Origin: an uncultured Candidatus Saccharibacteria bacterium
GTDB taxonomy: Bacteria; Patescibacteriota; Minisyncoccia; Minisyncoccales; PEYH01
Length of the DNA stretch: 38,284 bases
NCBI GenBank assembly: GCA_964422845.1
Contig: CAYRCT010000003.1
Location: 1 to 38,284, forward strand
Direction: 5' to 3'
Part shown: positions 8,332 to 38,284 of the stretch, piece by piece
Layout: the number at the start of each line of letters is the position of its first letter
How positions within the stretch are numbered: the first letter of the stretch is position 1
Notes under the pieces: model-generated
Told to the model about the DNA's origin: nothing
The model's database searches: none
The model's input: only the letters and a program-made list of their open reading frames with translations
Program-made: the position numbers and the translations under genes

Positions 8332-9270
8332 TTATTGATTGATTCCTAAAAGTTCAACTTCAAAAATTAGAGTAGCATTTGCTGGGATAGCACCGGAAAC
8401 ACCCTGCTCTCCATATGCTAAGCTTGATGGAATGGTTAACTTTCGTTTTTCTCCAACTTTCATCCCTTTAACTCCCGTGTCCCATCCTTTAATAACTTGA
8501 CCCGCGCCTAACGTAAAAACAAATGGCTTTCCCCTGTCTATGCTTGAATCAAATTTGGAACCATCCTCTAGTGTCCCCTTATAGTGAACTGTTACGGCGT
8601 CCCCGTCTTTCGCTCCCTCTCCGCTCCCTGGTTCTAAGATTATGATATTTACTTTATTGTTTTCTTCTAAATTTTTTGTGTCCATTTCTTTATAAATATT
8701 AAATGATTCTATTGTTTCCTTAAAAACATTTCTATATCTTTCCCAATCTTTTAGACCGGTATTAAATGTTATTAACCACATGTTATCACCTATTCCCTTA
8801 ATAACAACCATAAAAATTTTAAATTCACTCCCTTCTTTATAAAGTTCTCCTTCTATCACATAACCGTCTCTTTCGTTAATTTTTTCTTCCGTTACGGAAA
8901 TGACTTTAAAATCCGGCTGACTGACCTTTATTTGATCTTCCACACCGGCAACATATGTTTCTGGATCAATTCCTGGCATATCTTCGTAAGCAACGGCAAA
9001 ATAACTTTTAAAGCCCATATTTTCTAGTGCTACACCTTCATTCTCTTCGTTAACATTGGAAATCATGGCCGAGATACCAGACACGCCGACTATTTCTTCC
9101 CATCCTTCTGGAATGTTGATAGAAAATCCGTCTTTCTCAAGAATTTCTTGTTCCTTATTGTTGTCATCAAGTTCAAGTTCTGTATTTCTATTATTGAAAT
9201 GAATAACTATGCCAACAATCAATATGCTTAAAATTATGGTTAAGCCAATAAAGATAGTTTTTTTGTTCAT
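8332..9270 (-). CDS. Membrane-anchored FKBP-type peptidyl-prolyl isomerase with extra N-terminal (PsbP/DcrB-like) domain
   Basis: [37 protein letters not shown]; N-terminal TM and FSINIPEGW. Confidence 0.9.
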
Positions 9271-9379
9271 GTCTCTTTTCTTAATTTTTAATATTCCTAT
9301 TCTACCAACTCTATATAGAATTGCAAATATGTATAGAATAAAAAAGAGAGCATTATTTTGCTAATGATAAATAATCTCT

Positions 9380-9601
9380 TTATTCTTGAATTTTAATAAC
9401 TTTTTGTTTTGATTTTGCTCCTGATACAATTTTTACCTGCGTCATCGGAATCTTAAAATGCTTTGCGATCAATTTTATGATTGCTTTATTGGCACGCCCT
9501 TTAATCGGAAATTCTTTTATAAAAACCAAGAAATGATTATCGTCAATCTTTTCAATCTTCTTTTCTTTAGCTTTCAACTTTGCTGTAACAAAAATTTTCA
9601 T
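9380..9601 (-). CDS. DUF167 (YggU/UPF0235) family protein
   Basis: PIKGRANKAIIKLIAKHF...IVSGAKSKQK. Confidence 0.85.
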   Translation of the reverse strand: MKIFVTAKLKAKEKKIEKIDDNHFLVFIKEFPIKGRANKAIIKLIAKHFKIPMTQVKIVSGAKSKQKVIKIQE

Positions 9602-9612
9602 TATTCTTAAAA

Positions 9613-10554
9613 TTAATGTATTCTCTTTCTCCGCAGTAAAAACAAAAACAAAAGAACAAACAAAAGAAAACCTGCTAGAAATAAAATTTTAGTTGAAGGC
9701 AATTCTTTGTTTTCAAAAAATCCCCTAATGGATTCAAAAATTGATGCTTGGGCCCTATTTGGATCTAAGGGAAAAATATCTTTTGAATCAATCACTCCGT
9801 CCTCATCAGTATCTACTTTTAACGGATTAGTGCCGAGCTCAACTTCTTCTTTATCTGATAACTCATCTTTATCTGTATCAATGATTAAAGGATCTGTTTC
9901 GTAAATCCATAATTCTTCCTCGTCTTTCAATCCATCGTTATCATCGTCCTCATCAGTATTGTCCCCAATGCCATCTTTGTCACTATCTTTTGACTCATTA
10001 CTATCTAAGGGAAAAATATCTTCTCCATCTATTGCACCGTCACCGTCTGTGTCTGCAATTAAAGGATTTGTGCCCCAGATAATCTCTGTATCATCAAAAA
10101 GACCATCATCGTCGTCGTCAGGATCATAAAAATTTCCTATCCCATCTTCATCAGTGTCTGTGTCAACAAAAAAATTCTGCTTAATAACAGAATTATTTTC
10201 TATATTCTCGTCTATCGGACTGGTCTCAACAATATCGACTTCAATTTCATAAGTGCCTTGCTCAACAATCCAATCAATAAAAACATCATCATAAGTGTTT
10301 GTGCGTATAGAAATTGGTTGTGGCTCGGCTAATTTCTCGCCATTATTTAAAAAAATAACCTCACCATAAACATCTTTGTCGCCAAGATTAAAAACCCGAG
10401 CAAAAATTCGTATTCTCTCTCCTTCTATGGGTTCTTCTTTGGAAAAAACCACATCTGAAGCGCTGATAGATAGATCGGTCTTGGCAAAAACGAATTGAAA
10501 AGAAAATAGAACAAAAATTCCTATTCCTAAAATAATAAAATTTAATTTTTTCAC
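9613..10554 (-). CDS. Surface protein with CARDB/Ig-like domain, thrombospondin type-3-like Ca-binding repeats and C-terminal TM anchor
   Basis: Signal peptide, DLSI...VFNLG...ENIENN, repeated DTDxDG/FPLD, terminal hydrophobic helix plus RRKR. Confidence 0.8.
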   Translation of the reverse strand: MKKLNFIILGIGIFVLFSFQFVFAKTDLSISASDVVFSKEEPIEGERIRIFARVFNLGDKDVYGEVIFLNNGEKLAEPQPISIRTNTYDDVFIDWIVEQGTYEIEVDIVETSPIDENIENNSVIKQNFFVDTDTDEDGIGNFYDPDDDDDGLFDDTEIIWGTNPLIADTDGDGAIDGEDIFPLDSNESKDSDKDGIGDNTDEDDDNDGLKDEEELWIYETDPLIIDTDKDELSDKEEVELGTNPLKVDTDEDGVIDSKDIFPLDPNRAQASIFESIRGFFENKELPSTKILFLAGFLLFVLLFLFLLRRKRIH

Positions 10555-10598
10555 TTTACTAAAAACATAAAAATAATCTATTTTGATCTCTATGTATG

Positions 10599-10919
10599 TT
10601 AACTAATTTTACTCCCACAAAGCATCTCCTTATCGGGTTTTAAAAGCGCTAACTTGCCATCGTTATTAACAGCTAGAAGCATTCCTTGACTCTCTAATCC
10701 AAATATAACTCTTGGCTCTAGGTTCGCAACTATAACAATCTGTCTGTTAATTAATTCTTCTACTTCATACTCTGTGGCGATCCCTGCTATAATCTGCTTC
10801 TCTTCGGAGCCCAAATCTACCTTCAGCTTCAAAAGTTTATTAGAGCCCTCAACTTTTTCAGCGACAATTATATTTCCAATTCTTAAATTTAATTTTTGAA
10901 ATTCTTCAAAATTAATCAT
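10599..10919 (-). CDS. Standalone tRNA-binding OB-fold protein (MetRS C-terminal/CsaA/Trbp111-like)
   Basis: FEEFQKLNLRIG, KLLKLKVDLG, VANLEPR, SQGMLLA. Confidence 0.9.
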   Translation of the reverse strand: MINFEEFQKLNLRIGNIIVAEKVEGSNKLLKLKVDLGSEEKQIIAGIATEYEVEELINRQIVIVANLEPRVIFGLESQGMLLAVNNDGKLALLKPDKEMLCGSKIS

Positions 10920-28019: not shown

Positions 28020-28321
28020 AATTTTATAAATTTCAGTAAGTAGTATTGTGCATTAAAAAACAAGAAATTAAGCAAAAGTAAATTGATATTGAAAAACAAA
28101 CAAATTTACTTGGACAAATAGAAAAAGACAGTATAATGAAATAACAATCTAATTTGCCTAAACTCTGCGGAGCATGGTAGTAAACCACCATTTAGAGCAA
28201 AAAGTTCGTCATCTCGAAGCGCTCTAGAGGAGAAAAAATTAAAGTAAACTTCTACAAAAACAAATAACTTTTACCTACTAGCTTCCAAAAGGTCACACTA
28301 AAATTAAAGTAATCAATCAAT

Positions 28322-28540: not shown

Positions 28541-28585
28541 AACGACTTGCACTCAATCAAAAAATCGTCATTCTTGACGATTTTT

Positions 28586-28708
28586 TGACCCCTCTCGATT
28601 GCACTAGCGTACTGGACATCGTGGACGATGTTAAAGTTAAGATAAAAATGAATAGTGAGTATTTTTGTGTTCTGAATATAGTTTACTCACCCTCTAACTC
28701 ACTATATT
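28586..28708 (+). repeat. Junction repeat copy (tail module; its left part is shared with 35940-35965)
   Basis: CATCGTGGACGATGTTA...CTCACTATATT aligns with 29557-29653 and 30934-31019. Confidence 0.8.
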
Positions 28709-29403
28709 CAAAAATTGTCTATAATTGTACCTTCAAATTTGTTGCCACTCAGTATCTGTTGAAAATTATCTAAATTTTTCCCTTCGGCAACAATAATCTT
28801 AAGGTTCTCCTTTTGAGCTAAACGGGCAGCCACCGGATCAACTGGACTACTTAATCCCGGGCTCCACTCTGCAGGAATTAATTCTAAGTAATCCTTCCAA
28901 CTTATTCTCTCAAAGGGTTTAGCGTGCTTATCTTTTTCAAGGTCAGCCGTATAAACGTGATCTGGCTTACCAAGAACAATAACCTTTTTTATGTTGAAAT
29001 CGCAAGCAATCTGGCAAGCTACAAAATCAGTAGACCAACCCGGTTTCCAGCCACCTCCAATTATCAAAGAATATTCTCCAAATGATTTAATTCCGAAACG
29101 GTTGTCAAGTACTACTGGATGCGCTTCTTCTTTGAAAAGCGTCCGCACCAAATGGGCATTCAAACGGGTAGCATAAATACCTATCCAATCTTTATCCTCA
29201 CTGCCAACATCTGATATTTTAGAATAAGCATTCTGATACATTCTGGCAATACCTCCTCCACCGATGATTATAACGAACCTAAAACCCTCTTTTATTCTTT
29301 CTTTAATAAAAAAATGAAATTTCTTTAAAAAGTCGATATTAATATCTTTTGGCACTACCACGGAACCTCCTAGATCAATAACAAAATCTTTCTTTTTTGA
29401 CAT
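28708..29403 (-). CDS. pyrH: UMP kinase, archaeal-type
   Basis: LGGS, GGGGIAR, DWIGIYATRLNA, PGWSTD, PVDPVAA, FEGT. Confidence 0.93.
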   Translation of the reverse strand: MSKKKDFVIDLGGSVVVPKDINIDFLKKFHFFIKERIKEGFRFVIIIGGGGIARMYQNAYSKISDVGSEDKDWIGIYATRLNAHLVRTLFKEEAHPVVLDNRFGIKSFGEYSLIIGGGWKPGWSTDFVACQIACDFNIKKVIVLGKPDHVYTADLEKDKHAKPFERISWKDYLELIPAEWSPGLSSPVDPVAARLAQKENLKIIVAEGKNLDNFQQILSGNKFEGTIIDNF

Positions 29404-29417
29404 GTTTTATAATTAAT

Positions 29418-29653
29418 TATTCTATCTTACCAAAATTATCTAAAAAGTTCCATTTCCGCGCTCCCTCCAATTCAAAAACCCTCTGTTCATGAGGGTTTTT
29501 AACATTCGTTGAGGAGATAAGATTCGAATGCTTCCCGTGATGGCTCAAGTTGGCTGGCCATCGTGAACGATGTTAGAACTATAATTCAACAACAAAATGA
29601 TTCTGTTTATATTCCAAATCTAGTTTACCCCACCCCCTGACTTACTATATATT
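29418..29653 (+). repeat. Most complete junction repeat: leader module, hairpin, tRNA T-arm fragment, TGGCTG core and tail
   Basis: 29418-29479 matches 32890-32951 at 52/62 ungapped (hand count); GATTCGAA at 29521; GCTCAAGTTGGCTGGCCA identical at 33013-33030. Confidence 0.85.
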
Positions 29654-29722
29654 ACTTACGAATTAAAAAACTTCGGATATTGTATTTCTCTTTTTTCCTA
29701 AGGAATGAGACGACGTTAGAAC

Positions 29723-30169
29723 CTACCTACAATTAATTGATGTCGATGAACACATATCACCGTTTGCATCAGTTTTTACAAACCCGCTATTATCAACGCA
29801 AAAATATAAACCTAGGCTAGTGTTTAATTCAGCACTTATACAATAATTATTATCATTAGCTTGGCAATGCATATTAAGAAACCCACCCTGAACTTCAGCA
29901 ATATCCTCCTCTAAAGATCTTAGCTTGTCACCATAATCATCTCCTGCATTCTCGTTGAGGGTATCATCTGAACATAATTTTATATAAGATCCATCGTCAA
30001 ACCGAAGTATTTCTGCTTGAGCCTTAGCTTGATTAACATTGAATTTTATCATGGAATCATTGGCACGTAGAGCTGCATCATCTAACTTTGTCTTAGCTAC
30101 GACGATTACGCCTATGACGATCACCAATGTGGCGACTAATAGACCTATAATAACATTCTTCTTATTCAT
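29723..30169 (-). CDS. Type IV pilin-like protein lacking the canonical prepilin cleavage motif
   Basis: N-terminal helix, RANDSMIK..VNQAKAQAE, YCISAEL, FCVDNSG, six Cys. Confidence 0.7.
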   Translation of the reverse strand: MNKKNVIIGLLVATLVIVIGVIVVAKTKLDDAALRANDSMIKFNVNQAKAQAEILRFDDGSYIKLCSDDTLNENAGDDYGDKLRSLEEDIAEVQGGFLNMHCQANDNNYCISAELNTSLGLYFCVDNSGFVKTDANGDMCSSTSINCR

Positions 30170-30242
30170 ATTTTTTAATATTAATATTAATTATCTAATT
30201 CTAACCCAAAAACTCTCGTGAACCAAAGGTCTTTGTTATTTT

Positions 30243-30375
30243 TTGCGGGTCTAGAATTCGAACGCTCCTCGTGCTACGCACGACTTGGTTCCCTTATTGC
30301 GACTCAAAACCCCTTCGGTCACCCTAGCTCGGCCAGAATGCTCGATTTAGACAATGATATTATAACCTATTTTTG
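30243..30375 (+). repeat. Junction repeat copy with tRNA 3'-end-like fragment
   Basis: TTGCGGGTCTAGAATTCGAAC + GCTCCTCGTGCTA (also near 35976 and 37047). Confidence 0.8.
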
Positions 30376-30421
30376 CACAATTTAGACTTATTGTTATCAG
30401 CTATGACTGCTTGGATATATT

Positions 30422-30859
30422 CTAATTAAATACTCTTGGTTGAGTTGTCGATTCGGCTTCAATATCTTGCTTGACGTAAACTCTACTTAAGAAATAAAAC
30501 ATAGCCACTCTGATAACAAAGGCTATTAGCAAAACTATCGACCCTGGCCCAAATGTGCCTGCAAAAAGATTAATGGCTATCCAACAAACTACTAAATAAG
30601 TGGTTGCCAAATTTATTAGCTTCTTTCTGTCTTTTATTATATATGCCTTTCTAATATATCTTGCGGCATACATAACGCCTAGCCAAATGCTAATCACGCT
30701 AAAGATTATAGACAGCACAGTGTCCAATATTCCTTCAGCCATAAATGACGAGACGAGAAAACCATATATAAATGCAGCAACTAAAGGCACGATAAAACCA
30801 GCGGTCAAATAAAAGGTGGCTGCAGCATACCAGATCGAAACTTCTTTTTTTTGTTTCAT
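30422..30859 (-). CDS. Hypothetical four-TM membrane protein
   Basis: Four hydrophobic segments; TGGTATAGT extended -10 upstream. Confidence 0.75.
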   Translation of the reverse strand: MKQKKEVSIWYAAATFYLTAGFIVPLVAAFIYGFLVSSFMAEGILDTVLSIIFSVISIWLGVMYAARYIRKAYIIKDRKKLINLATTYLVVCWIAINLFAGTFGPGSIVLLIAFVIRVAMFYFLSRVYVKQDIEAESTTQPRVFN

Positions 30860-30920
30860 AATTTTATTGTTAATTATTTTACTATACCAAAAAACCGCTC
30901 AAACAGCGATTTTTTAAACA

Positions 30921-31019
30921 GCTCTAGGTATAAGACAACATTAGAACCATAATTCAACGACAAAATGAGCATATTTATATTCCAAATCTATTTTCTTCCA
31001 CTCCTTGACTCACTATATT
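30921..31019 (+). repeat. Junction repeat copy (tail module)
   Basis: TTAGAACCATAATTCAACGACAAAATGA...TTTATATTCCAAATCTA closely matches 29573-29622. Confidence 0.85.
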
Positions 31020-31039
31020 TGAGTAAATATTCATCAGGA

Positions 31040-32473
31040 TTATTTCTTGTCCTGGGGATTGTCTAGATTATACCATTTTTCCCACTTAGCCGAGTCTTCA
31101 TTATGACGCCAGACTTCTCGTGTGGTTTTATAATATATGCATATGTTATTAACGAGAGAAGGAGGGACCCCATAATTAAAAACTATATCACAATCAATCT
31201 CTGCCTCTCCTAAATCAGTAACCTCTATCCATTTATCTCCTACTTTCTTTAATAGGAAATAGCCATAACCAGTTCCTGTATTAGCAATTGCGAAATTACC
31301 CTCCGTTTCTATTATCTCAACACGCTTAGATAAATCTACTGCTGAATTTAAAAAATTATAGATTTCCCTATAAAAGACTGGAGTTGTATTCTTCGTAATG
31401 TCTCCACAACTCAACTCGAAATATTGAAAATCATTAGGTTGAATGCGGAAGACACATTTTATATCGCCTCTTTCAAAACTAAAAATCTTCTCGTCAATAT
31501 CAGTATTTTCTGTATTGGAAACAAAATTCTCTTCTAAACAGACAGTTATCGTATTAATACAATTATCTATAACTGACTGACTATAGTCGCCCGGGGTCCC
31601 GAAAATATACCATTGATATCCCTTAATAAGCTCAATTTCTTTATTTTGATCTATCCATGGAAAGCCTGAATACTCTTCGGTAAGTTGGCGTTCTTCAATA
31701 TTTGTGTCTACGCAATAAAGTTGTGTTATTTCTGTTAAACTGTTTGCAAGTGCTTTAAGTTTATCCGTTGATTCGTTCATTTCTTCGGCTATCTGTCCAC
31801 AATTATTAAATTCTGAGTTTACTTCCATGGGCTTTGCAGTAGTTATGGGAGAAGGCTCATTTCCAGGATATTCATATTTTACTAAATACCAAGTTCCGAT
31901 TCCAATAATAAATACTAATAAAATTATTACAAAAAAAGCTGTCTGTGTAGAAATTCTTTTATTGAAATATTGTTTAATATTCTTAGTATTTTTTCGCCGA
32001 GATTTATCTTTAAAATAAAAGCTCTCCAATTTTTTGAACTTTTTTCTTCTCTGATTCAACCAATTGCCAATCAATATAAGGAGAGAAATGAGGTACGAAA
32101 AAATTGCTGCAGGATAAAGAAACCAAGCAATCATCAAACCGAATCCCGAAACATCCTCGCTACTCGATATTCCTACACTTATCCACATCAACAATAATGA
32201 TATTACTATTACAACAATAATGGGAAGAGTCAGAATAGAACTCAAAAAAATCATTTTACTTTTTTCTTTTCTTTTTTTTCCTATCCTAATAAAATAGCAA
32301 CCAGACAAAATAGAAAATAACAATGTTAAAATCGGAGTCAAGAATTCTCCTTGTATCTGCCTATGCTGTCTCTGCAATAATAATGATTGATAGAAACTCG
32401 AACCTGCCCAAAGAATACCTGCGATTATTAAACTCCACCCAATAAATTTATAAAAATTATATCTTTTTTCCAT
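31040..32473 (-). CDS. Hypothetical membrane protein with Cys-containing extracellular domain, possibly a gene fusion
   Basis: Four TMs, Lys-rich linker, an internal signal-like segment NKRISTQTAFFVIILL, then a soluble domain. Confidence 0.7.
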   Translation of the reverse strand: MEKRYNFYKFIGWSLIIAGILWAGSSFYQSLLLQRQHRQIQGEFLTPILTLLFSILSGCYFIRIGKKRKEKSKMIFLSSILTLPIIVVIVISLLLMWISVGISSSEDVSGFGLMIAWFLYPAAIFSYLISLLILIGNWLNQRRKKFKKLESFYFKDKSRRKNTKNIKQYFNKRISTQTAFFVIILLVFIIGIGTWYLVKYEYPGNEPSPITTAKPMEVNSEFNNCGQIAEEMNESTDKLKALANSLTEITQLYCVDTNIEERQLTEEYSGFPWIDQNKEIELIKGYQWYIFGTPGDYSQSVIDNCINTITVCLEENFVSNTENTDIDEKIFSFERGDIKCVFRIQPNDFQYFELSCGDITKNTTPVFYREIYNFLNSAVDLSKRVEIIETEGNFAIANTGTGYGYFLLKKVGDKWIEVTDLGEAEIDCDIVFNYGVPPSLVNNICIYYKTTREVWRHNEDSAKWEKWYNLDNPQDKK

Positions 32474-32583
32474 AAAAATTTTTTCTATTAAATATTTTTC
32501 TGCAATAAGCTTTAACTAATTTCTTAATTTTCTTTTTATTTTTCATACTTCTCTAACTTTTATTACAGAAACTATAGAAATTA

Positions 32584-32874
32584 CTAGATAGTCATGCTAG
32601 TGGTACTCGTAAGCGCAAGAATGCCTACTGTTACCATTGCAATTAGAAGTAAAATGGCGAATAACGATACAATGGACCGGACGCTATCTTTTTGTTTAAG
32701 CGATTGAATAAAATTATAAAATGAATACAATAATAGAAACATAAATGTTCCCAGAGAAAAAGAAGAGATAAGCTTTAGGTCTATTCCTATCCCTGCTCTC
32801 AGATAAAGTAAAAATATTAGGGGAAATAGGATATAAGAAATTATTATAAATATAATAGTTGTTTTTTTGTCCAT
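32584..32874 (-). CDS. Hypothetical three-TM membrane protein
   Basis: Hydrophobic 96-aa ORF; upstream region homologous to that of pyrH. Confidence 0.7.
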   Translation of the reverse strand: MDKKTTIIFIIISYILFPLIFLLYLRAGIGIDLKLISSFSLGTFMFLLLYSFYNFIQSLKQKDSVRSIVSLFAILLLIAMVTVGILALTSTTSMTI

Positions 32875-32889
32875 ATTTTTATCATTGGT

Positions 32890-33111
32890 TATTCTATTCT
32901 ACCAAAGATATTAAAAAAGTTCCATTTCTACACTCCCTCTAATTCAAAAACTTTTTGTCTATAAGGGCTTTGCGGGATTAGGATTCGAACCCGTCTCGGT
33001 CGCGAGAACTGCGCTCAAGTTGGCTGGCCAACTCGGGCTAGAACCGTATTTATTTCAGGCCCAGCAAGGCTTTTCTGTCTTATCTTTAGTATAATGCAAC
33101 GACGGGTCTCG
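32890..33111 (+). repeat. Junction repeat copy: leader module, tRNA 3'-end fragment and TGGCTG core
   Basis: TTGCGGGATTAGGATTCGAACC 32970-32991; ACGACGGGTCTCG at 33099 and 37124. Confidence 0.85.
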
Positions 33112-33403
33112 AGCAGACTAAAAAGTGACAAAAGTGACACAGGATTAACAATAAAATTACACGCGAATGTCATTATTTTATAATAAACCCGATTCTCGAA
33201 GGAGTTATATCAACGGGTTTTATCATATTTATTTTTTTCTTTTAATAGGAGATAAAAAAATTCTGTCTTGGGTTCCTTTTAATCAGAGGAAAGTGAAAAC
33301 GCTCTAATTCTAATCGCAAAAGAGCAAAAATTCCTTTCCCCATTCCCCTCTTCTTTCTTGCCCTTTTGCAAAAACGAGTGCGAAACGAGTGGGGCGACGG
33401 GGG

Positions 33404-34540
33404 TTATGTTTCTAAATTATCCTTGATTTCTCTAATTTTTTCAACTTCGCTCACTCTTTGCCGTAAAATTTGTAATTTACTAAGCTGTTCGGCAATTCCT
33501 GACTCAATTCCAGCTACGTCCAGCACAACCCTCTGGATGGCTTCTGGCGATTTGTCGTCTTGTTCCGCAATCAGTTCTGCCAATTTTCGCACACGCTCTT
33601 TATCTTCTTCTTTTGTTACTTTTCCAGCCACATCTTCATCTTGCATAAGCACTCCAAAAATTTCTTCTGGTTTCGACTCTCCCGTAATGTTCGGTGTTAT
33701 ACGCTCAACAATGGTCGAAATTGTCACTTTCCTGTTTTTAAATTCTTCTTCCAGTACACTTTCAATTTCTATTACATCATCCATTGTTAATCTGCCCGTC
33801 TCGGCCAAATAGCGAAGATCGCTTTGGTCAAATCCGCGCTTTCCGTGAAGTTTGAAATATGCCACTTTCGCGGGATGAGAGAGATTGATTTCTGCTCCCT
33901 GATAAATTGTCAACTGTGGTTCATACCATTTTTCAGGTAAAGGTACTCCACTAAAGCCAAGTGGCCTGCCTTGTTCGTCTCTCTTTATCAAATGAACATC
34001 AAGGAAATTCAGTGATTCGCCCTCGCGAATTTTCCCTTGATCATCTACTGCCGCAATCATCGAGTGTTCCTCTGGAGCCTCTCTAAATTCACTAGCCGAG
34101 ACCCATTCCATTTTGCGCTTTTTTGGGTTTTCGTGTTCGGAAGACAAAAACAAGCCATATCTTTTTGAAAAAAGTTGCTGCTCTAGTCTTTCCAAGTCAT
34201 CTGGGTCAACTGTTAGATCAACGTCTTTATGAACACCAATGTAATCACCTTTCATCAACGAAACATTGAGTGCTCCGTCCAACTGCCACCGCACATCCGA
34301 ACCCTCAAAAATATCACCAAGTTTCTTTATATCTCCGTCCATCTGCTCTTTCTCTACGTCTGTTGGTTGACGACGTTCGTCTCCTTTGTCTTGATCTAAA
34401 ACCGTTTCATCAAAAAATGCCGGCCGGTCCTGATGGCGAAATTGCTCGCGAACTGATTCAAGCTTTATTTGCTCTTCTTCGATTTTTGTACTTTCTTGGG
34501 GCTGTTCTTGTGAAAATGTAAATTTCTCTGGCGATGTCAT
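33404..34540 (-). CDS. Nucleotidyltransferase, ANT(2'')/Lnu-like pol-beta superfamily, with extra C-terminal helical region
   Basis: WQLDGALNVSLMKG...HKDVDL (G...DxD), third acidic residue in LDVH, RGFDQSDL. Confidence 0.75.
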   Translation of the reverse strand: MTSPEKFTFSQEQPQESTKIEEEQIKLESVREQFRHQDRPAFFDETVLDQDKGDERRQPTDVEKEQMDGDIKKLGDIFEGSDVRWQLDGALNVSLMKGDYIGVHKDVDLTVDPDDLERLEQQLFSKRYGLFLSSEHENPKKRKMEWVSASEFREAPEEHSMIAAVDDQGKIREGESLNFLDVHLIKRDEQGRPLGFSGVPLPEKWYEPQLTIYQGAEINLSHPAKVAYFKLHGKRGFDQSDLRYLAETGRLTMDDVIEIESVLEEEFKNRKVTISTIVERITPNITGESKPEEIFGVLMQDEDVAGKVTKEEDKERVRKLAELIAEQDDKSPEAIQRVVLDVAGIESGIAEQLSKLQILRQRVSEVEKIREIKDNLET

Positions 34541-35847
34541 AAGTAAACAGATTTTAATTTTTTGATAAACTGAAACGATTCTTTTATATCATCGCTTGGT
34601 TCTTCCCAGCGTTGTTTGAATGCTCCATAGTCAACTAATTTTATATCCAATTCGCCGTCCTCGGAAACACTGAAAAATAAATTATCACCAATCGTATCAA
34701 TCATCAGTTTGTGCTCCTCATATAATTTCTCAACCCCTTCGACAAAAGCCCTCAGTTTTTTCTTGTTCTTATCCTGTTTCAACGCTTCGACTATTTCTTG
34801 CCCATATTCTCCAGAAATTAAGCCATCAATATTATTGTTTCTTACGCTCGTCATTTCCGATAACGGCATTTTTTCTTGAAGAACGTGTAGTTGCTCTGAG
34901 TCTCCAGTCTGCAAAACGGCCTGCTTTGGTAAAAATTCTTTTCCAATATTATCTCTAATGATTGGATACCGAAGTAAAGATTCTCTACTATATTTTATTT
35001 CTTTTAGATCTTTTAGTTTGCGTTCAGTTTTTAAAACATATTCTAGGTCTTTCGGCACCAAAACATTCCAAAACATACCTTGGCCCGCACTGCTTTCTTT
35101 ATCACGCAAAATACTGGCAATTATGTGCTTAATCTCATCTTCACCGAGACTAGCTATTTCAGAATCGCTAAGCTCCGCAAGATCAATCGTCTCATCGTCA
35201 ATTTGCACTTCTTGTCCACCTGCCAATTTAATATCAGCACCCAAAAACATTTCTTGGTTTTCTCCTACCAACTGTTCTCTCAGAAGTTTGCCATATTTAT
35301 CAAAAAATGCTCTATCTCGCGATAGGCGCTGTATCAATTCCTTGTCATTTTTATCGATGCCTAACAGTTCTATTAATTCTCGTCTATCAACGTGCACTAT
35401 TTGTGGTGATGATAACAATTCGATTGCTTTTGTTTTTGATTCATCGCTCATTTTAGCGCCAAGTGATTCCAGGCTTGTAATCATATCTTCGGATCTAAGT
35501 CGATTGACCTCTAGACGATTCTCTTCAAATCCATTCATTCGCTCCTTAAAAGCCGCAATCTCTCCTTCCATTTTTTGAGATAATTCTTCTCTCGTATTGT
35601 CTGATACTGCAACATTTTCTGTCGCGCTAACGTACTGATGACGAATATCTTCTAGACGTTGAGCAAGCTCTTGGTCACTTCTTGGACCTTCATAATTATC
35701 TAATTCTTGGCCCAAAGAATTGATGTGCTCGGTGCGAAGCTGTTCAGGTGTTTTCTCTTCTTCTGTTATTATTGTTTCATTCGGCTCAATAGATTGCTCT
35801 ATGTTATCCTTGGGCCCTTCCCCTCCTGATAATTGTTCTTCCTCCAT
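34537..35847 (-). CDS. Protein-kinase-like (PKL fold) enzyme with N-terminal acidic coiled coil
   Basis: GQGMFWNV (Gly loop), YVLK, VLQE hinge, DTIGDN catalytic loop, LVDYG. Confidence 0.75.
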   Translation of the reverse strand: MEEEQLSGGEGPKDNIEQSIEPNETIITEEEKTPEQLRTEHINSLGQELDNYEGPRSDQELAQRLEDIRHQYVSATENVAVSDNTREELSQKMEGEIAAFKERMNGFEENRLEVNRLRSEDMITSLESLGAKMSDESKTKAIELLSSPQIVHVDRRELIELLGIDKNDKELIQRLSRDRAFFDKYGKLLREQLVGENQEMFLGADIKLAGGQEVQIDDETIDLAELSDSEIASLGEDEIKHIIASILRDKESSAGQGMFWNVLVPKDLEYVLKTERKLKDLKEIKYSRESLLRYPIIRDNIGKEFLPKQAVLQTGDSEQLHVLQEKMPLSEMTSVRNNNIDGLISGEYGQEIVEALKQDKNKKKLRAFVEGVEKLYEEHKLMIDTIGDNLFFSVSEDGELDIKLVDYGAFKQRWEEPSDDIKESFQFIKKLKSVYL

Positions 35848-35939
35848 AATTTTTAATTAATTATAGCCCAGAACGTTTAATAACTTCTTTTTCCATACTG
35901 TCTTTACTTTACCAAAAAAATCGCTTTTTAGCGATTTTT

Positions 35940-36078
35940 TGGCCCTCTCTTGATCGCACTAGCGTGTTATCCGAACGCTCCTCGTACTAGCTCTAAATGG
36001 TTGGCCGTCGTGAACAACGTTAGAACTAAAATTCAACAATAAAGTGAGTCTATCTGTATTTCTAATTTGGCTCTGTAA
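35940..36078 (+). repeat. Junction repeat copy with TGGTTG core and tail
   Basis: GAACGCTCCTCGTACTAGCTCTAAATGGTTGGCCGTCGTGAACAACGTTAGAACTA. Confidence 0.85.
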
Positions 36079-36130
36079 TTTTAATTGGCTGGCTACTTCG
36101 AACTAGAGCTTATTCTGAATGAAAAGGAAA

Positions 36131-37030
36131 TTATGAAGCTTGATATACTTTCTCTTTAAAATCACTAAAAGTTAAAATAGGTACTTTTATTATTTTAGCT
36201 ATTTTTTGTAAAAGCACATAATCATTATAGGCATTCATTCCATGTCCGGTATATCCTTTCCAACCTAATTCATTAGCTTTTTTAACTATTGGAATTTCTA
36301 TATGAGGTCTTAAATCAACAAATATATAATTCATATTTTTAAATTCCTCAAGAAAAATATTAATAGTTTCCTGATTTTCAACACCCTCTTTCCCTGCAGC
36401 ATTAATAAAAATTAAATCAGATATATCTTTAGTATCGATATTATTAATAGCTTCAGAATATTCCACATTTCCCTGATCTGATAACTCTTCTTTTAAATTA
36501 TTCTTATTGACAGGATCTATTAGGAATAGTTTTTTAGGACTTTCTTTAATAATCGCTCTTGCCAGTGGTTCTCCCACTCCCCCAACCCCTAAAAGAAAAA
36601 CAATTTTATCTTTGAAAGAACCTATATCGTCTTTATACCAACTAATAAAAGAAGGACCATTTAAATCATATGGTATCAATTTATTTTGATTATCTTTTAT
36701 TAAAGAATCAACATTATTTGGAAGAGTAATATTTTTAAAATATTCTTTTAATACGGGATTACTTTTATGAGGCTGTGTTTGATTTATTGCAATAATATTA
36801 TTTCTTTCCTCTACAAGCTCATATATTTCTTTTAATGAATTGTGATCTTCTTTTTCAATATCTATTGGTTGATAAATAAAATCTTCTATAAGATTATTCA
36901 TGTAGATTCTACTAGTAGATCTTTCCCATCTTTTTTTATCCTTATGGGCTAAATATAAACAATAATATTTTTTATCATCTATATTTCTTTTTAGTTCTTC
37001 AACTGAATAATAAATATTTATTCTTTCCAT
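36131..37030 (-). CDS. Divergent shikimate dehydrogenase-like oxidoreductase
   Basis: NQTQPHK (cf. NVTxPxK), LLGVGGVG Rossmann motif, INAAG, DLRP, TGHGM. Confidence 0.7.
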   Translation of the reverse strand: MERINIYYSVEELKRNIDDKKYYCLYLAHKDKKRWERSTSRIYMNNLIEDFIYQPIDIEKEDHNSLKEIYELVEERNNIIAINQTQPHKSNPVLKEYFKNITLPNNVDSLIKDNQNKLIPYDLNGPSFISWYKDDIGSFKDKIVFLLGVGGVGEPLARAIIKESPKKLFLIDPVNKNNLKEELSDQGNVEYSEAINNIDTKDISDLIFINAAGKEGVENQETINIFLEEFKNMNYIFVDLRPHIEIPIVKKANELGWKGYTGHGMNAYNDYVLLQKIAKIIKVPILTFSDFKEKVYQAS

Positions 37031-37044
37031 GATGTTTTTATAAT

Positions 37045-37149
37045 AACGCTCCTCGTGCTAACTCAAGGTTGCTTACCGGTCCAAAAATCGAACGCGTCTC
37101 GGGCGCACAGGACCCATCAAATTACGACGGGTCTCGTGCTAGCTCAAAA
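37045..37149 (+). repeat. tRNA-proximal junction repeats, including a degenerate tRNA 3'-end copy
   Basis: CTCGTGCTA(A/G)CTCAA occurs twice (about 37052 and 37133); TTGCTTACCGGTCCAAAAATCGAAC resembles TGGCTGCCGGGCTAGGATTCGAAC. Confidence 0.8.
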
Positions 37150-37223
37150 TGGCTGCCGGGCTAGGATTCGAACCTAGATTGATGGAGCCAGAATCCATTG
37201 GCCTACCGTTAGCCGACCCGGCA
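37150..37223 (-). tRNA. tRNA-Gln(CTG) with encoded CCA
   Basis: Acceptor TGCCGGG/CCCGGCA-GCCA, anticodon arm ATGGA-TTCTGGC-TCCAT, T arm CTAGG-TTCGAAT-CCTAG. Confidence 0.96.
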
Positions 37224-37259
37224 AAAAATTAACAATCTTGAAATTTTAAATATCTGGAC

Positions 37260-37348
37260 TTGACAAGAAATCTGGATTTAGTATACTAAAAATATCATGA
37301 AGGGGAAAAGTCTTTAAGGTTCTGTCCTTAAAGCGACACCCTTTTTTT
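37260..37348 (+). other. Promoter-like TTGACA-16-TATACT followed by an interrupted hairpin and T run (candidate small RNA, or NYN 3' element)
   Basis: AAGGG..GTC-TTTAAGG-ttctgt-CCTTAAA..GAC..CCCTT then T tract. Confidence 0.4.
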
Positions 37349-37847
37349 ATTTAGAACGCTTACCGAGTTTGTTTCTTAAATTATTTACATAATCCATATA
37401 TTCTCTAAATTTCCATAAAAGCTGAGAATAGACTTTTCTATTTGGGATAATAACTCGTCCCAATTTTTCTTTTTTCTCCAAATATTCAATTAAGCAGTGG
37501 AAATCACCATCTCCAGAAACAATAATTGCTTTATCATAATTTGGATATTCAATCATTGCGTGTAAAACCAACTCTGCATCAACATTGCCTTTTGTATGTA
37601 TCTTTCCTTGTTTTTTATACTTTAAAGTTGGCTTAAACACCACAACATAACCAACTTTTTGCAAAAATGTATACAATGCTTAATTGCCAACGACATAGCC
37701 AATAAATAAAAAAGCTCTTTTTACTTTATACTTATCTTTGAGATAGACATAAAACCTGGCAAAATCTAAACTCCAACCGCAGTCTTTAACCGCCAAATTA
37801 AGATTTTGGCTATCTATAAATGCGTAAATTTTTTGATTTTTAACCAT
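37347..37847 (-). pseudogene. NYN-domain (LabA/PIN-like) nuclease gene with in-frame TAA at codon 56
   Basis: MVKNQKIYAFIDSQNL...GYVVGN*ALYTFLQ...KGNVD...SGDGDF, all in one frame; stop at 37680-37682. Confidence 0.88.
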
Positions 37848-37862
37848 TTAGAGAAATTCTTT

Positions 37863-38284
37863 TTATGCTATTAGATATCTTCTGATCGCAACGAGGGAAG
37901 AAACAACTCCCAGAACAATGCCACAGGCGAGTTGAAGAAAGAATATGCCAAATGCACGAGCGCCAAACCAGGCAAATAGATTAAAGCCATTGGTAAGGGA
38001 TTCTATCTTATCTGCTGAAAAGTAAGCAGTCAAGAATAAAATCAGAAAAGATATAAGAGCGGCTATAGTGCCTGCAATAATTCCTTGGACAATAAATGGT
38101 CCCCTAACAAAGCTGTTTGATGCACCGACTAGCTTCATAATGGAAATCTCTTTGCTGGAATCGTAAATTGCGACTCTAATAGTATTAAAAGTAATTAAAA
38201 CCGCTATGATGCCCAAGGTAATTGCTAGAAAAAGGCCAGTTGCATTAATGTTGGAAATAAATGTTGAAAGTTTTTCAATAACTG
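37863..38284 (-). CDS. ftsX: Cell division permease FtsX, 3' part (truncated by window edge)
   Basis: FNTIRVAI...EISIMKLVGAS..FVRGPF..QG, C-terminal AIRRYL; frame stays open to the edge. Confidence 0.9.
   Translation of the reverse strand, partial: VIEKLSTFISNINATGLFLAITLGIIAVLITFNTIRVAIYDSSKEISIMKLVGASNSFVRGPFIVQGIIAGTIAALISFLILFLTAYFSADKIESLTNGFNLFAWFGARAFGIFFLQLACGIVLGVVSSLVAIRRYLIA

Follow-up and report, generated by a model that had tools for sequence, protein, structure and literature searches.

A probable integration hotspot of large serine recombinase elements at a tRNA-Gln gene in an uncultured Candidatus Saccharibacteria bacterium

Background

Large serine recombinases (LSRs) are well known from prophages and integrative elements of the phiC31, Bxb1 and A118 types. 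In this study we describe an array of genes behind a tRNA-Gln(CUG) gene in an uncultured Candidatus Saccharibacteria bacterium, where the repeats between the genes are, as judged from sequence comparison, the ends of LSR genes, and we compare this array with the closest systems described so far. The DNA analysed, referred to below as the window, is the whole of contig C3 (38,284 nucleotides) of genome G000, an assembly of 613 kb in 63 contigs with a G+C content of 34% and a completeness of 98.8%.

Attachment sites placed within a gene of the mobile element have been recognized in other systems. For the SSV-type archaeal tyrosine integrases, the integrase gene is partitioned upon integration into tRNA genes, and in the integration-dependent immunity of mycobacteriophages attP is located inside the repressor gene, so that integration removes a C-terminal tag. 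As for serial integration at a single tRNA gene, the tRNA-anchored islands of Prochlorococcus, namely tycheposons, provide an example: the study describing them reports that each new integration at the tRNA displaces the earlier elements further inward, that the islands contain dispersed fragments of integrases and incomplete tRNAs, and that a minority of the elements carry an LSR, 910 of the 937 elements using tyrosine recombinases (10.1101/2020.12.28.424599).

Results

Eight open reading frames (ORFs), numbered g1 to g8 by increasing coordinate, occupy positions 28708-37030 behind the tRNA-Gln(CUG) gene, all of them on the minus strand; this layout, given by an initial annotation of the window, was confirmed with ORFs, ARAGORN and Rfam. 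The tRNA gene anchoring the array (37150-37223, minus strand) is intact with its CCA encoded (Rfam tRNA, 58.6 bits, E 2.5e-10). The junction strings quoted in the initial annotation are found where it had placed them, namely GCTCAAGT-TGGCTG-GCCATCGTGAACGATGTTAGAAC at 29543-29579, GCTCAAGT-TGGCTG-GCCA at 33013-33030, GCTCTAAA-TGGTTG-GCCGTCGTGAACAACGTTAGAAC at 35990-36026, and GCTCAAAA-TGGCTG followed by the tRNA body at 37142-37155. The shared core is indeed the 3' end of the tRNA, i.e. its last six bases CAGCCA (37150-37155), which read TGGCTG on the plus strand. However, the repeats are longer than had been described, extending over about 110-150 nt from the stop codon of each gene past the core. 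In the window repeat search, 29522-29619 and 35969-36066 agree at 77% across 98 nt, 29573-29650 and 30941-31018 at 83% across 78 nt, and 29374-29499 and 32846-32971 at 72% across 126 nt; in addition, AACGCTCCTCGTGCTA-like 27-mers occur in three copies at 30254, 35967 and 37038.

These repeats are more frequent than expected by chance. Among the 26 genomes of the family set, the left arm (a 20-mer, with up to 3 mismatches) has 9 sites in 4 genomes with none for its reversed control, and the hairpin arm (a 22-mer) has 19 sites in 10 genomes with 1 for the control, so that within the family both are infrequent and confined to certain lineages. Moreover, as the initial annotation implied, they are not scattered: a genome-wide search of G000 detected pieces only at C3:28.5-37.2 kb and on a few others of small size, namely C35/C39 (whose ends overlap), C21, C60, C46 and C22.

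On the plus strand, opposite to the cargo genes, the repeats are open and read W-L-x-[IV]-V-[DN]-[DN]-[VI]-R-T-x-I-…-[YI]-[IV]-Y-[IV]-P-[DN]-L, with a further 2-8 residues ahead of the stop codon. Over the Y-I-Y-I-P-D-L block the entropy of the three codon positions is 0.66, 0.17 and 1.05, respectively (26 copies from many genomes), and in an alignment of 18-19 copies from seven genomes the changes fall on third bases and the length differences are whole codons; on the cargo-side strand, read by hand for one copy in G021, stops appear in all three frames. A profile of this tail matches 77 of the 301 genomes in the order set, with 1-9 copies each; every copy sits in an open frame of 19-176 aa, and the copies are often arrayed beside tRNA-Asn, tRNA-Ser or tRNA-Gln. 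Searched against a database of 1.84 billion representative proteins, the profile gave 294 matches; for the best 150 of them, the match ends within 10 residues of the C-terminus in 133 cases, and 131 of the proteins have 120 aa or fewer. By reading, the longer proteins carry C-terminal parts of LSRs, with confirmation by Pfam for one of the ten tested, P0020, which joins a Resolvase domain at its N-terminus to the tail. The full-length LSR P0240 (514 aa) has Resolvase, Recombinase and Zn-ribbon domains and ends in …W-L-R-I-V-D-D-V-R-T-V-I-Q-Q-S-N-E-Y-I-Y-I-P-D-L-K, with 67% identity to the peptide of junction J2 in the window (E 3e-11). At the level of sequence, these comparisons identify the repeats of the window as the 3' ends of LSR genes. 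The earlier remark that no recombinase was in view is consequently right for intact genes, in that no match to PF00239 or PF07508 was found in the window or in the whole of G000, but the repeats themselves are what it overlooked. Across the order set, LSR genes are present in 134 of the 301 genomes, and none was found in G000, G001, G003 and G021. It is also observed that many LSR genes lie 400-1100 nt from contig ends and that assemblies tend to break at such elements, therefore the arrays are probably under-assembled.

In relatives the LSR gene itself is found split at tRNAs. In G018, a genome of the same family, the LSR of contig C10 (496 aa, 9401-10891, plus strand) has the Resolvase, Recombinase and Zn-ribbon domains, and its last codons K-W-L-R-G-stop are the antisense of a tRNA-Gln(CUG) 3' end with an overlap of 15 nt; the tail S-V-L-N-K-I-R-T-F-F-R-E-N-P-N-A-D-F-stop is located 9.1 kb away on the same strand, preceded by non-LSR sequence. 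Likewise, the LSR of G306:C1 ends in …Y-W-L-R-R-stop inside tRNA-Asn with a tail 3.9 kb away, and that of G260:C5 continues into L-R-G-Q-D-S-N-L, which we read as tRNA T-loop antisense (ARAGORN called no tRNA at this locus), with a tail about 2.9 kb away. Among 120 close homologues of the G018 LSR, 13 keep the tail unsplit (14 with P0181, added by eye), for example P0160 (512 aa) and P0240; in 49 the frame continues into strings (D-S-N / G-F-E-P) that we take for the antisense of a tRNA T-loop, in 37 it terminates no more than 4 residues past [WVLM]-L, and the other 21 are different or truncated. At 7 of 20 sampled loci the LSR 3' end overlaps an antisense tRNA, these being Ile, Val, Gln twice, Asn, Ser and Leu. 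Since both ends are seen in complete elements, attP is placed inside the LSR gene at the W-L codons, and integration would detach about 27 codons. As to the G018:C10 element itself (L021 1700-10950, 9.1 kb), its cargo is of defence type, with an OLD-like AAA_15/TOPRIM protein, a type I specificity subunit, an N6 methylase, DUF5655, RadC and a Cro/C1-type helix-turn-helix protein, and a second LSR C-terminus, inverted, unsplit and truncated, is located at 9144-9476.

The joint at the window tRNA (37121-37155, plus strand) is of attL type and laid out as the intact LSR/tRNA joints of G018 and G306: it reads D-G-S-R-A-S-S-K-W-L and then enters the antisense tRNA (P-G-stop), with the left-arm block at 37128-37149. 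Next to it an older decayed joint (37045-37120, plus strand) has a second left-arm block at 37045-37066, then a decayed tRNA-3'-end-like stretch and the pre-W-L codons (…E-R-V-S-G-A-Q-D-P-S-N-Y…); the segment encoded by the left arm ahead of W-L is conserved as F-E-P-V-S-G-A-Q-D-P-S-N-Y-D-G-S-R-A-S-S-K. The best-preserved attP-like site is junction J2 (29510-29722, plus strand), where a tRNA-3'-like piece (29510-29528) and the left arm precede the core TGGCTG (29551-29556), which opens an intact tail of 29 codons, W-L-A-I-V-N-D-V-R-T-I-I-Q-Q-Q-N-D-S-V-Y-I-P-N-L-V-Y-P-T-P (29551-29637, profile E 1.7e-13); a short additional D-D-V-R-T fragment lies at 29709-29722 (plus strand). Junction J7 (35941-36066, plus strand), also attP-like, consists of a native-flank-like block B' (35941-35967), the left arm (35974-35997), the core TGGTTG (35998-36003) and a tail remnant with a premature stop, W-L-A-V-V-N-N-V-R-T-K-I-Q-Q-stop (35998-36039, profile E 9.5e-10), and a hairpin then a T-run are located at 35911-35939.

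The other internal junctions are decayed. In J4 (30919-31018, plus strand) a decayed LSR tail (…I-Y-I-P-N-L…) lies directly behind the g4 stop, matched by the profile at 30919-30996 (E 1.7e-10) with two internal stops, and a hairpin then a T-run follow the same pattern at 30886-30914. J3 (30243-30330, plus strand) has a tRNA-3'-like piece (30243-30260), the left arm (30261-30276) and a decayed CCA-end-like stretch, without a tail. J6 (32973-33141, plus strand) has a tRNA-3'-like piece, a left-arm variant and the core TGGCTG (33021-33026), and then a third arm type, which retains the GTTCTAGC motif but contains an in-frame stop and belongs to a multi-copy element of about 130 nt. Finally, in the far end J1 (28559-28707, plus strand) a hairpin and T-run (28559-28589) are followed by block B', the native flank downstream of tRNA-Gln (28590-28615), and by a tail that is again decayed (about 28616-28700). 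Both 28590-28615 and 35941-35967 match the sequence directly 3' of tRNA-Gln in G012:C1, a site without such an array behind it, and for J1 the agreement is 90% over 30 nt immediately 3' of that tRNA. Because of this match to native downstream sequence, the far end at 28590-28700 is regarded as attR-like, and as it carries the native flank, g8 to g1 with the pyrH-like gene included lie inside inserted DNA. The internal junctions are thus attP-like, as had been suggested, the tRNA joint being here the attL-like one and the far end the attR-like one.

The units carry one or two genes each, and g1 alone is firmly named: at 28708-29403 (231 aa) it encodes a pyrH-like, archaeal-type UMP kinase (TIGR02076, 172.6 bits, cut-off 158). 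The genes g2 to g8 have weak or no Pfam/NCBIfam matches, and PADLOC gave zero matches among seven cargo proteins. In the order of their coordinates, all on the minus strand, g2 (29723-30169, 148 aa) has a paralogue on C11 with 38% identity, g3 (30422-30859, 145 aa) is membrane-like, g4 (31040-32473, 477 aa) and g5 (32584-32874, 96 aa) match no family, g6 (33404-34540, 378 aa) has a weak nucleotidyltransferase match and none in NCBIfam or PADLOC, g7 (34537-35847, 436 aa) has no NCBIfam or PADLOC match, and g8 (36131-37030, 299 aa) has a weak Rossmann/shikimate-dehydrogenase-like match under the curated cut-offs; g7 and g6 probably form one operon, since their start and stop overlap. Inspection of the sequence shows terminator-like hairpins in most junctions, together with boxes resembling an extended -10 element (TGGTAnAAT-like); a generic scan was uninformative, as it gave 33 promoter-like sites where 33.7 were expected and 3 terminators where 4.9 were. 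Besides, a block TATAGT-G-A-G-T…GGTGGGGTAAA is located behind cargo stop codons and ahead of the tail (28695-28707, 29638-29650, 31006-31018), and in G251 (L052:7150-7185) it lies directly upstream of a cassette gene start, like a -10 box plus leader; on the plus strand we presume it to resemble the promoter core of phage single-subunit RNA polymerases. A sub-threshold match to LOOT RNA at 28155-28254 (plus strand; 25.7 bits with E 0.56, the gathering score being 46.4) is probably due to chance.

The order upstream of the array, i.e. tRNA-Gly, tRNA-Thr, about 2.7 kb, FtsX and tRNA-Gln, is conserved in relatives. In G000 the tRNA-Gly and tRNA-Thr genes are on contig C24, which is probably the neighbour of C3, the first 17 residues of the FtsX fragment used as query (37863-38282, at the right-hand end of the window; residues at 38232-38282) being identical to the end of C24 (8302-8352). 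Behind the tRNA-Gln, in agreement with what the initial annotation proposed, the content differs between congeners (G001, G002 and G003). In G003 the site is nearly empty: FtsX and tRNA-Gln are followed by a MatE gene and TypA/BipA (83% aa identity), and the gap from FtsX to TypA is 1.58 kb versus 10.6 kb in the window, with the tRNA allele and flank differing from those of G000, so that the breakpoint is not placeable to the base. G001 has other cargo at the same tRNA-Gln site plus one tail, and the contig of G002 stops 0.7 kb behind the tRNA-Gln.

The pyrH-like g1, which had been taken as a conserved flank of the interval, is cargo inside the array. It is the sole AA_kinase-family gene found in G000, and among the five genomes searched with the family model only G000 and G012 have such a gene (88% aa identity); none was found in G001, G002 and G003 (93-97% complete) with this model, nor in G004 with a protein query. 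Since the gene is missing in these searches of the congeners, UMP kinase is accessory in this lineage. Relatives of other cargo genes also lie beside tails elsewhere, as pyrH does in G012: in G021 the gene next behind tRNA-Gln is a relative of g3 with 57% identity, another with 44% is just beyond the LSR element in G018, and a relative of g4 with 37% identity adjoins a tail in G004:C48.

Discussion

We consider it likely that the tRNA-Gln 3' end serves as a hotspot of integration and that the interval was built there by LSR-family mobile elements with attP inside the recombinase gene. Such a family would be widespread in this small-genome order (Parcubacteria/Patescibacteria in the database sources), with attP about 27 codons ahead of the stop of the recombinase gene. 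The crossover would take place at or next to the W-L codons, where TGG CTG is the complement of the tRNA …CAGCCA, and integration would split the gene: its bulk would become convergent with the tRNA and end a few codons into the antisense tRNA, and the last 27 or so codons (the tail, I-V-D-N-V-R-T…Y-I-P-D-L) would stay at the far end of the element, to be rejoined by excision. What the initial annotation termed mosaic att-like repeats would then be such tails together with the codons just before W-L, which would give the attL-like joint at the tRNA, the attP-like joints at 29529-29640 and 35974-36040 reading …A-S-S-[SK]-W-L and then the tail, the decayed joints at 30243-30330, 30919-31018 and 32973-33141, and the attR-like end at 28590-28700. 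The four tails would represent varying decay, from the intact J2 through J7 with its premature stop to the decayed J4 and J1. We infer that one integration after another at the tRNA-proximal site enlarged the array, and that it has since become frozen. Altogether, the initial interpretation is supported in part: the att-type array at the tRNA stands, the integron-like character stands as an analogy only, and the pyrH flank and a recombinase wholly out of view do not.

Several observations weigh against this mechanism. Canonical LSRs recombine attP with attB only, so that an attL-like site could take up one insertion after another only through a non-canonical reaction or by homologous recombination. 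At 26 left-arm sites in metagenomes, TGGyTG is followed by an intact tRNA-Gln in 8 cases, a tail in 5, the third arm type in 8, tRNA-like fragments in 2, other sequence in 2 and the contig end in 1, and no site has a long upstream frame (124 aa at most). Moreover, no intact LSR with pre-W-L codons matching the window left arm was found, and the pre-W-L peptide gave nothing significant beyond W-L against the 120 G018-type LSRs (blastp-short). The tRNA-3'-end-like pieces, which begin in the T-loop and abut the left arm, are not accounted for, and neither is the third arm type (33027-33141), which keeps GGTTCTArC despite its in-frame stop, so that this motif is conserved as DNA too. As to activity, the array occurs in salt-lake samples and is present in identical order in four other metagenome runs (2017-2019), with contigs bridging junctions, e.g. 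29489-31136, 35184-37120 and 35930-38284, and the contigs of these runs hold no reliable excision joint: 14 joints were listed, most of them in repeats, and with a shorter side of 20-29 nt they are unreliable and were not counted. Which parts of the window are covered in these runs is evidence neither way. The array looks frozen, as is also suggested by G000 having no LSR gene.

The tRNA itself adds a further difficulty. The family has two very different tRNA-Gln(CUG) alleles (window 37150-37223; L083:1848-1919; L036:7179-7250; L014:7324-7395), and the allele of G000 is common to G012, G008 and G016 (97-99% identity), the congeners G001-G003 and also G004 having the other one. In addition, a pseudogene with an NYN domain (37347-37847, minus strand; ORFs 37347-37676 and 37680-37847, with one in-frame stop) lies between FtsX and tRNA-Gln; the NYN gene is intact in G012:C1 just after the tRNA, and FtsX abuts the tRNA in the other relatives examined. 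The discordant allele and the NYN position indicate that homologous replacement also shaped the locus, and the tRNA-Gln may have been replaced together with the array. In the NYN region, contigs of three runs also have a 202-bp skip at 37592-37795, a weak observation with only 29 nt on the shorter side.

Two side observations concern the repeat units. The element of about 130 nt (33013-33141; C35:1-63 with C39:1-117; C21:4737-4831) is conserved, non-coding and multi-copy with a TATACT/TATAAT box; it breaks the assembly, the C35/C39 overlap lying inside it, and its depth in run X3 is raised about five-fold (69 versus about 13). A site symmetry, in which TTCGAAC and GTTAGAAC lie at 21 nt from the centre to the left and to the right, respectively, and the T-loop at 15 nt from it in the tRNA, fits the window-type copies and is absent in the copies of G018 and G021, thus serving as a lead only.

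A possible alternative, to which we give clearly less credence, is that the units never had a recombinase and consist of attP, one or two genes, a promoter and a terminator, the LSR of a visiting element excising them as circles and re-inserting them, with an integron-like accretion at tRNA genes. In its favour, G012:C48 has a one-gene unit of 640 bp between identical left-arm 20-mers (0 mismatches in both, with a shared stretch of about 30 bp), in G021:C37 a direct repeat of about 75 nt comes after the tRNA and again after cassette 1, many copies of the left arm break off at one and the same point, none of the 26 left-arm sites has an LSR upstream, and pyrH with its flanks, which the searches did not detect in congeners, agrees at 86% (nt) and 88% (aa) across two genera. 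However, neither a circular form nor an empty/filled polymorphism was seen in the contigs of the four runs, attP x attL is non-canonical for LSRs, and small autonomous elements of 2.9-3.9 kb exist, so that the decay of full elements needs little deletion. Tentatively, the two may be joined: with attP in the last 27 or so codons of the LSR, integration at a tRNA 3' end would toggle between a full-length and a tail-less enzyme, and units with a site but no recombinase, each holding one or two genes with their own expression, would be mobilised in trans and accrete at tRNA genes as in an integron, being able to spread UMP kinase between genera. Such a combined scheme, too, seems to us rather doubtful as a whole.

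It is unlikely that, once DNA had been taken up, ordinary homologous recombination together with duplication of the junction modules produced the array with no site-specific recombinase acting at the locus. The tRNA allele discordant with phylogeny, the NYN gene on the opposite side of the tRNA compared with G012, and the promoter/terminator modules repeated at 29374-29499 and 32846-32971 are consistent with it, but the W-L/CCA position is where the breakpoints fall across many genomes and several kinds of tRNA, and the far end is native flank fused to a tail.

Still less probable is a role of the repeats as regulatory or structured-RNA elements, such as 3' untranslated region motifs, small RNA genes, or self-spreading repeats like repetitive extragenic palindromes (REP) or miniature inverted-repeat transposable elements (MITE). 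The repeats lie exactly between stop codons and terminators, a small hairpin with 4 predicted pairs includes one compensatory pair, and the TATAGT-G-A-G-T block behind stop codons also precedes the G251 cassette gene. Nevertheless, an Rfam scan of the whole window with E up to 1 gave the tRNA only and zero matches at the repeats, and the consensus structure of 18 copies (RNAalifold) has 4 pairs on one strand and 0 on the other, for which the structured-RNA reading was dropped; besides, the conservation tracks codon positions, the sequence encodes the terminal part of a protein whose domains are known, and the copies are few and not dispersed.

That the array is a sedentary integron remnant (CALIN), its GTTCTAAC/GTTAGAAC motifs being attC core sites for an integron integrase, is rejected with hardly any probability left to it, for although GTTAGAA fits GTTRRRY at 6 of 7 positions, an inverted partner is found 60-90 nt away around a hairpin in G021, G251 and G012, and the array genes are co-oriented, there is no IntI gene in G000, whose single tyrosine recombinase resembles Xer (XerD model 220 bits; integron-integrase model TIGR02249 94 bits versus a cut-off of 265), the motif is the V-R-T codons of the recombinase tail, all GTTAGAAC copies in the window have the same direction without an attC-type inverted core pair or a consensus pairing of more than 4 bp (RNA parameters), and the genes have their own promoters.

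Among known systems, the comparison first concerns the LSR prophages and integrative elements. The LSRs of the relatives have the same Resolvase, Recombinase and Zn-ribbon domains, and the elements share with these systems short attachment (att) sites, the lack of a long target duplication and a fixed chromosomal site; the difference is that attP is here inside the recombinase ORF, with the last 27 or so codons removed by integration, that integration is directed at tRNA gene 3' ends, several such genes being used, and that the elements are very small (2.9-9.1 kb) with tails accumulating in arrays. Junctions derived from att sites occur in an attL/attR/attP-like pattern; an intact LSR gene is present in G018, G306 and G260, and the window and G000 hold 3' remnants only. 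No description of an ORF-internal attP in LSRs was found in the literature searched, the supplementary tables being outside this search, which is not proof of absence. With the SSV-type integrases the elements share attP inside the integrase gene, a tRNA target and gene fragments beside tRNAs as footprints of past integration; those are tyrosine recombinases of archaeal viruses and plasmids split at another position, and here a serine recombinase is split near its C-terminus. As in mycobacteriophage immunity, attP in an ORF means that integration alters the C-terminus of a protein encoded by the element; there it is the repressor that is split, by a tyrosine integrase, and here the recombinase itself.

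Serial integration at one tRNA is common to this array and the tycheposons; the latter, in the part of the study available, use mostly tyrosine recombinases, and no split recombinase gene is described there. An island of the Islander type, i.e. a tRNA island of a tyrosine integrase, does not fit either, as no island integrase is present and the far end is a recombinase tail with native flank and no tRNA 3' copy. For Xer-dependent modules (IMEX or pdif), in which dif-like sites of 28-31 bp flank the units, the Xer-like nature of the one tyrosine recombinase in G000 is a hint at most. Integrons and CALINs likewise have co-oriented small gene units accreting at one site with recombination sites between them, but here there is no IntI and no attC fold, the units have promoters and terminators, and the site is a recombinase gene end plus a tRNA end; hence the integron-like description in the initial annotation holds as an analogy only.

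Conclusions

Our analysis explains a cassette array that seems to have no recombinase, in that its spacers are the recombinase's own gene end, and points to a frequent LSR family whose attachment site is embedded in an ORF. The tail peptide is a simple sequence marker for past integrations and variable regions in very small genomes, and the family offers natural att/enzyme pairs aimed at tRNA 3' ends. It is conceivable that integration, by changing the C-terminus of the recombinase, gives the tail a putative regulatory role. Finally, pyrH, which is usually taken as a core gene, is here mobile cargo.

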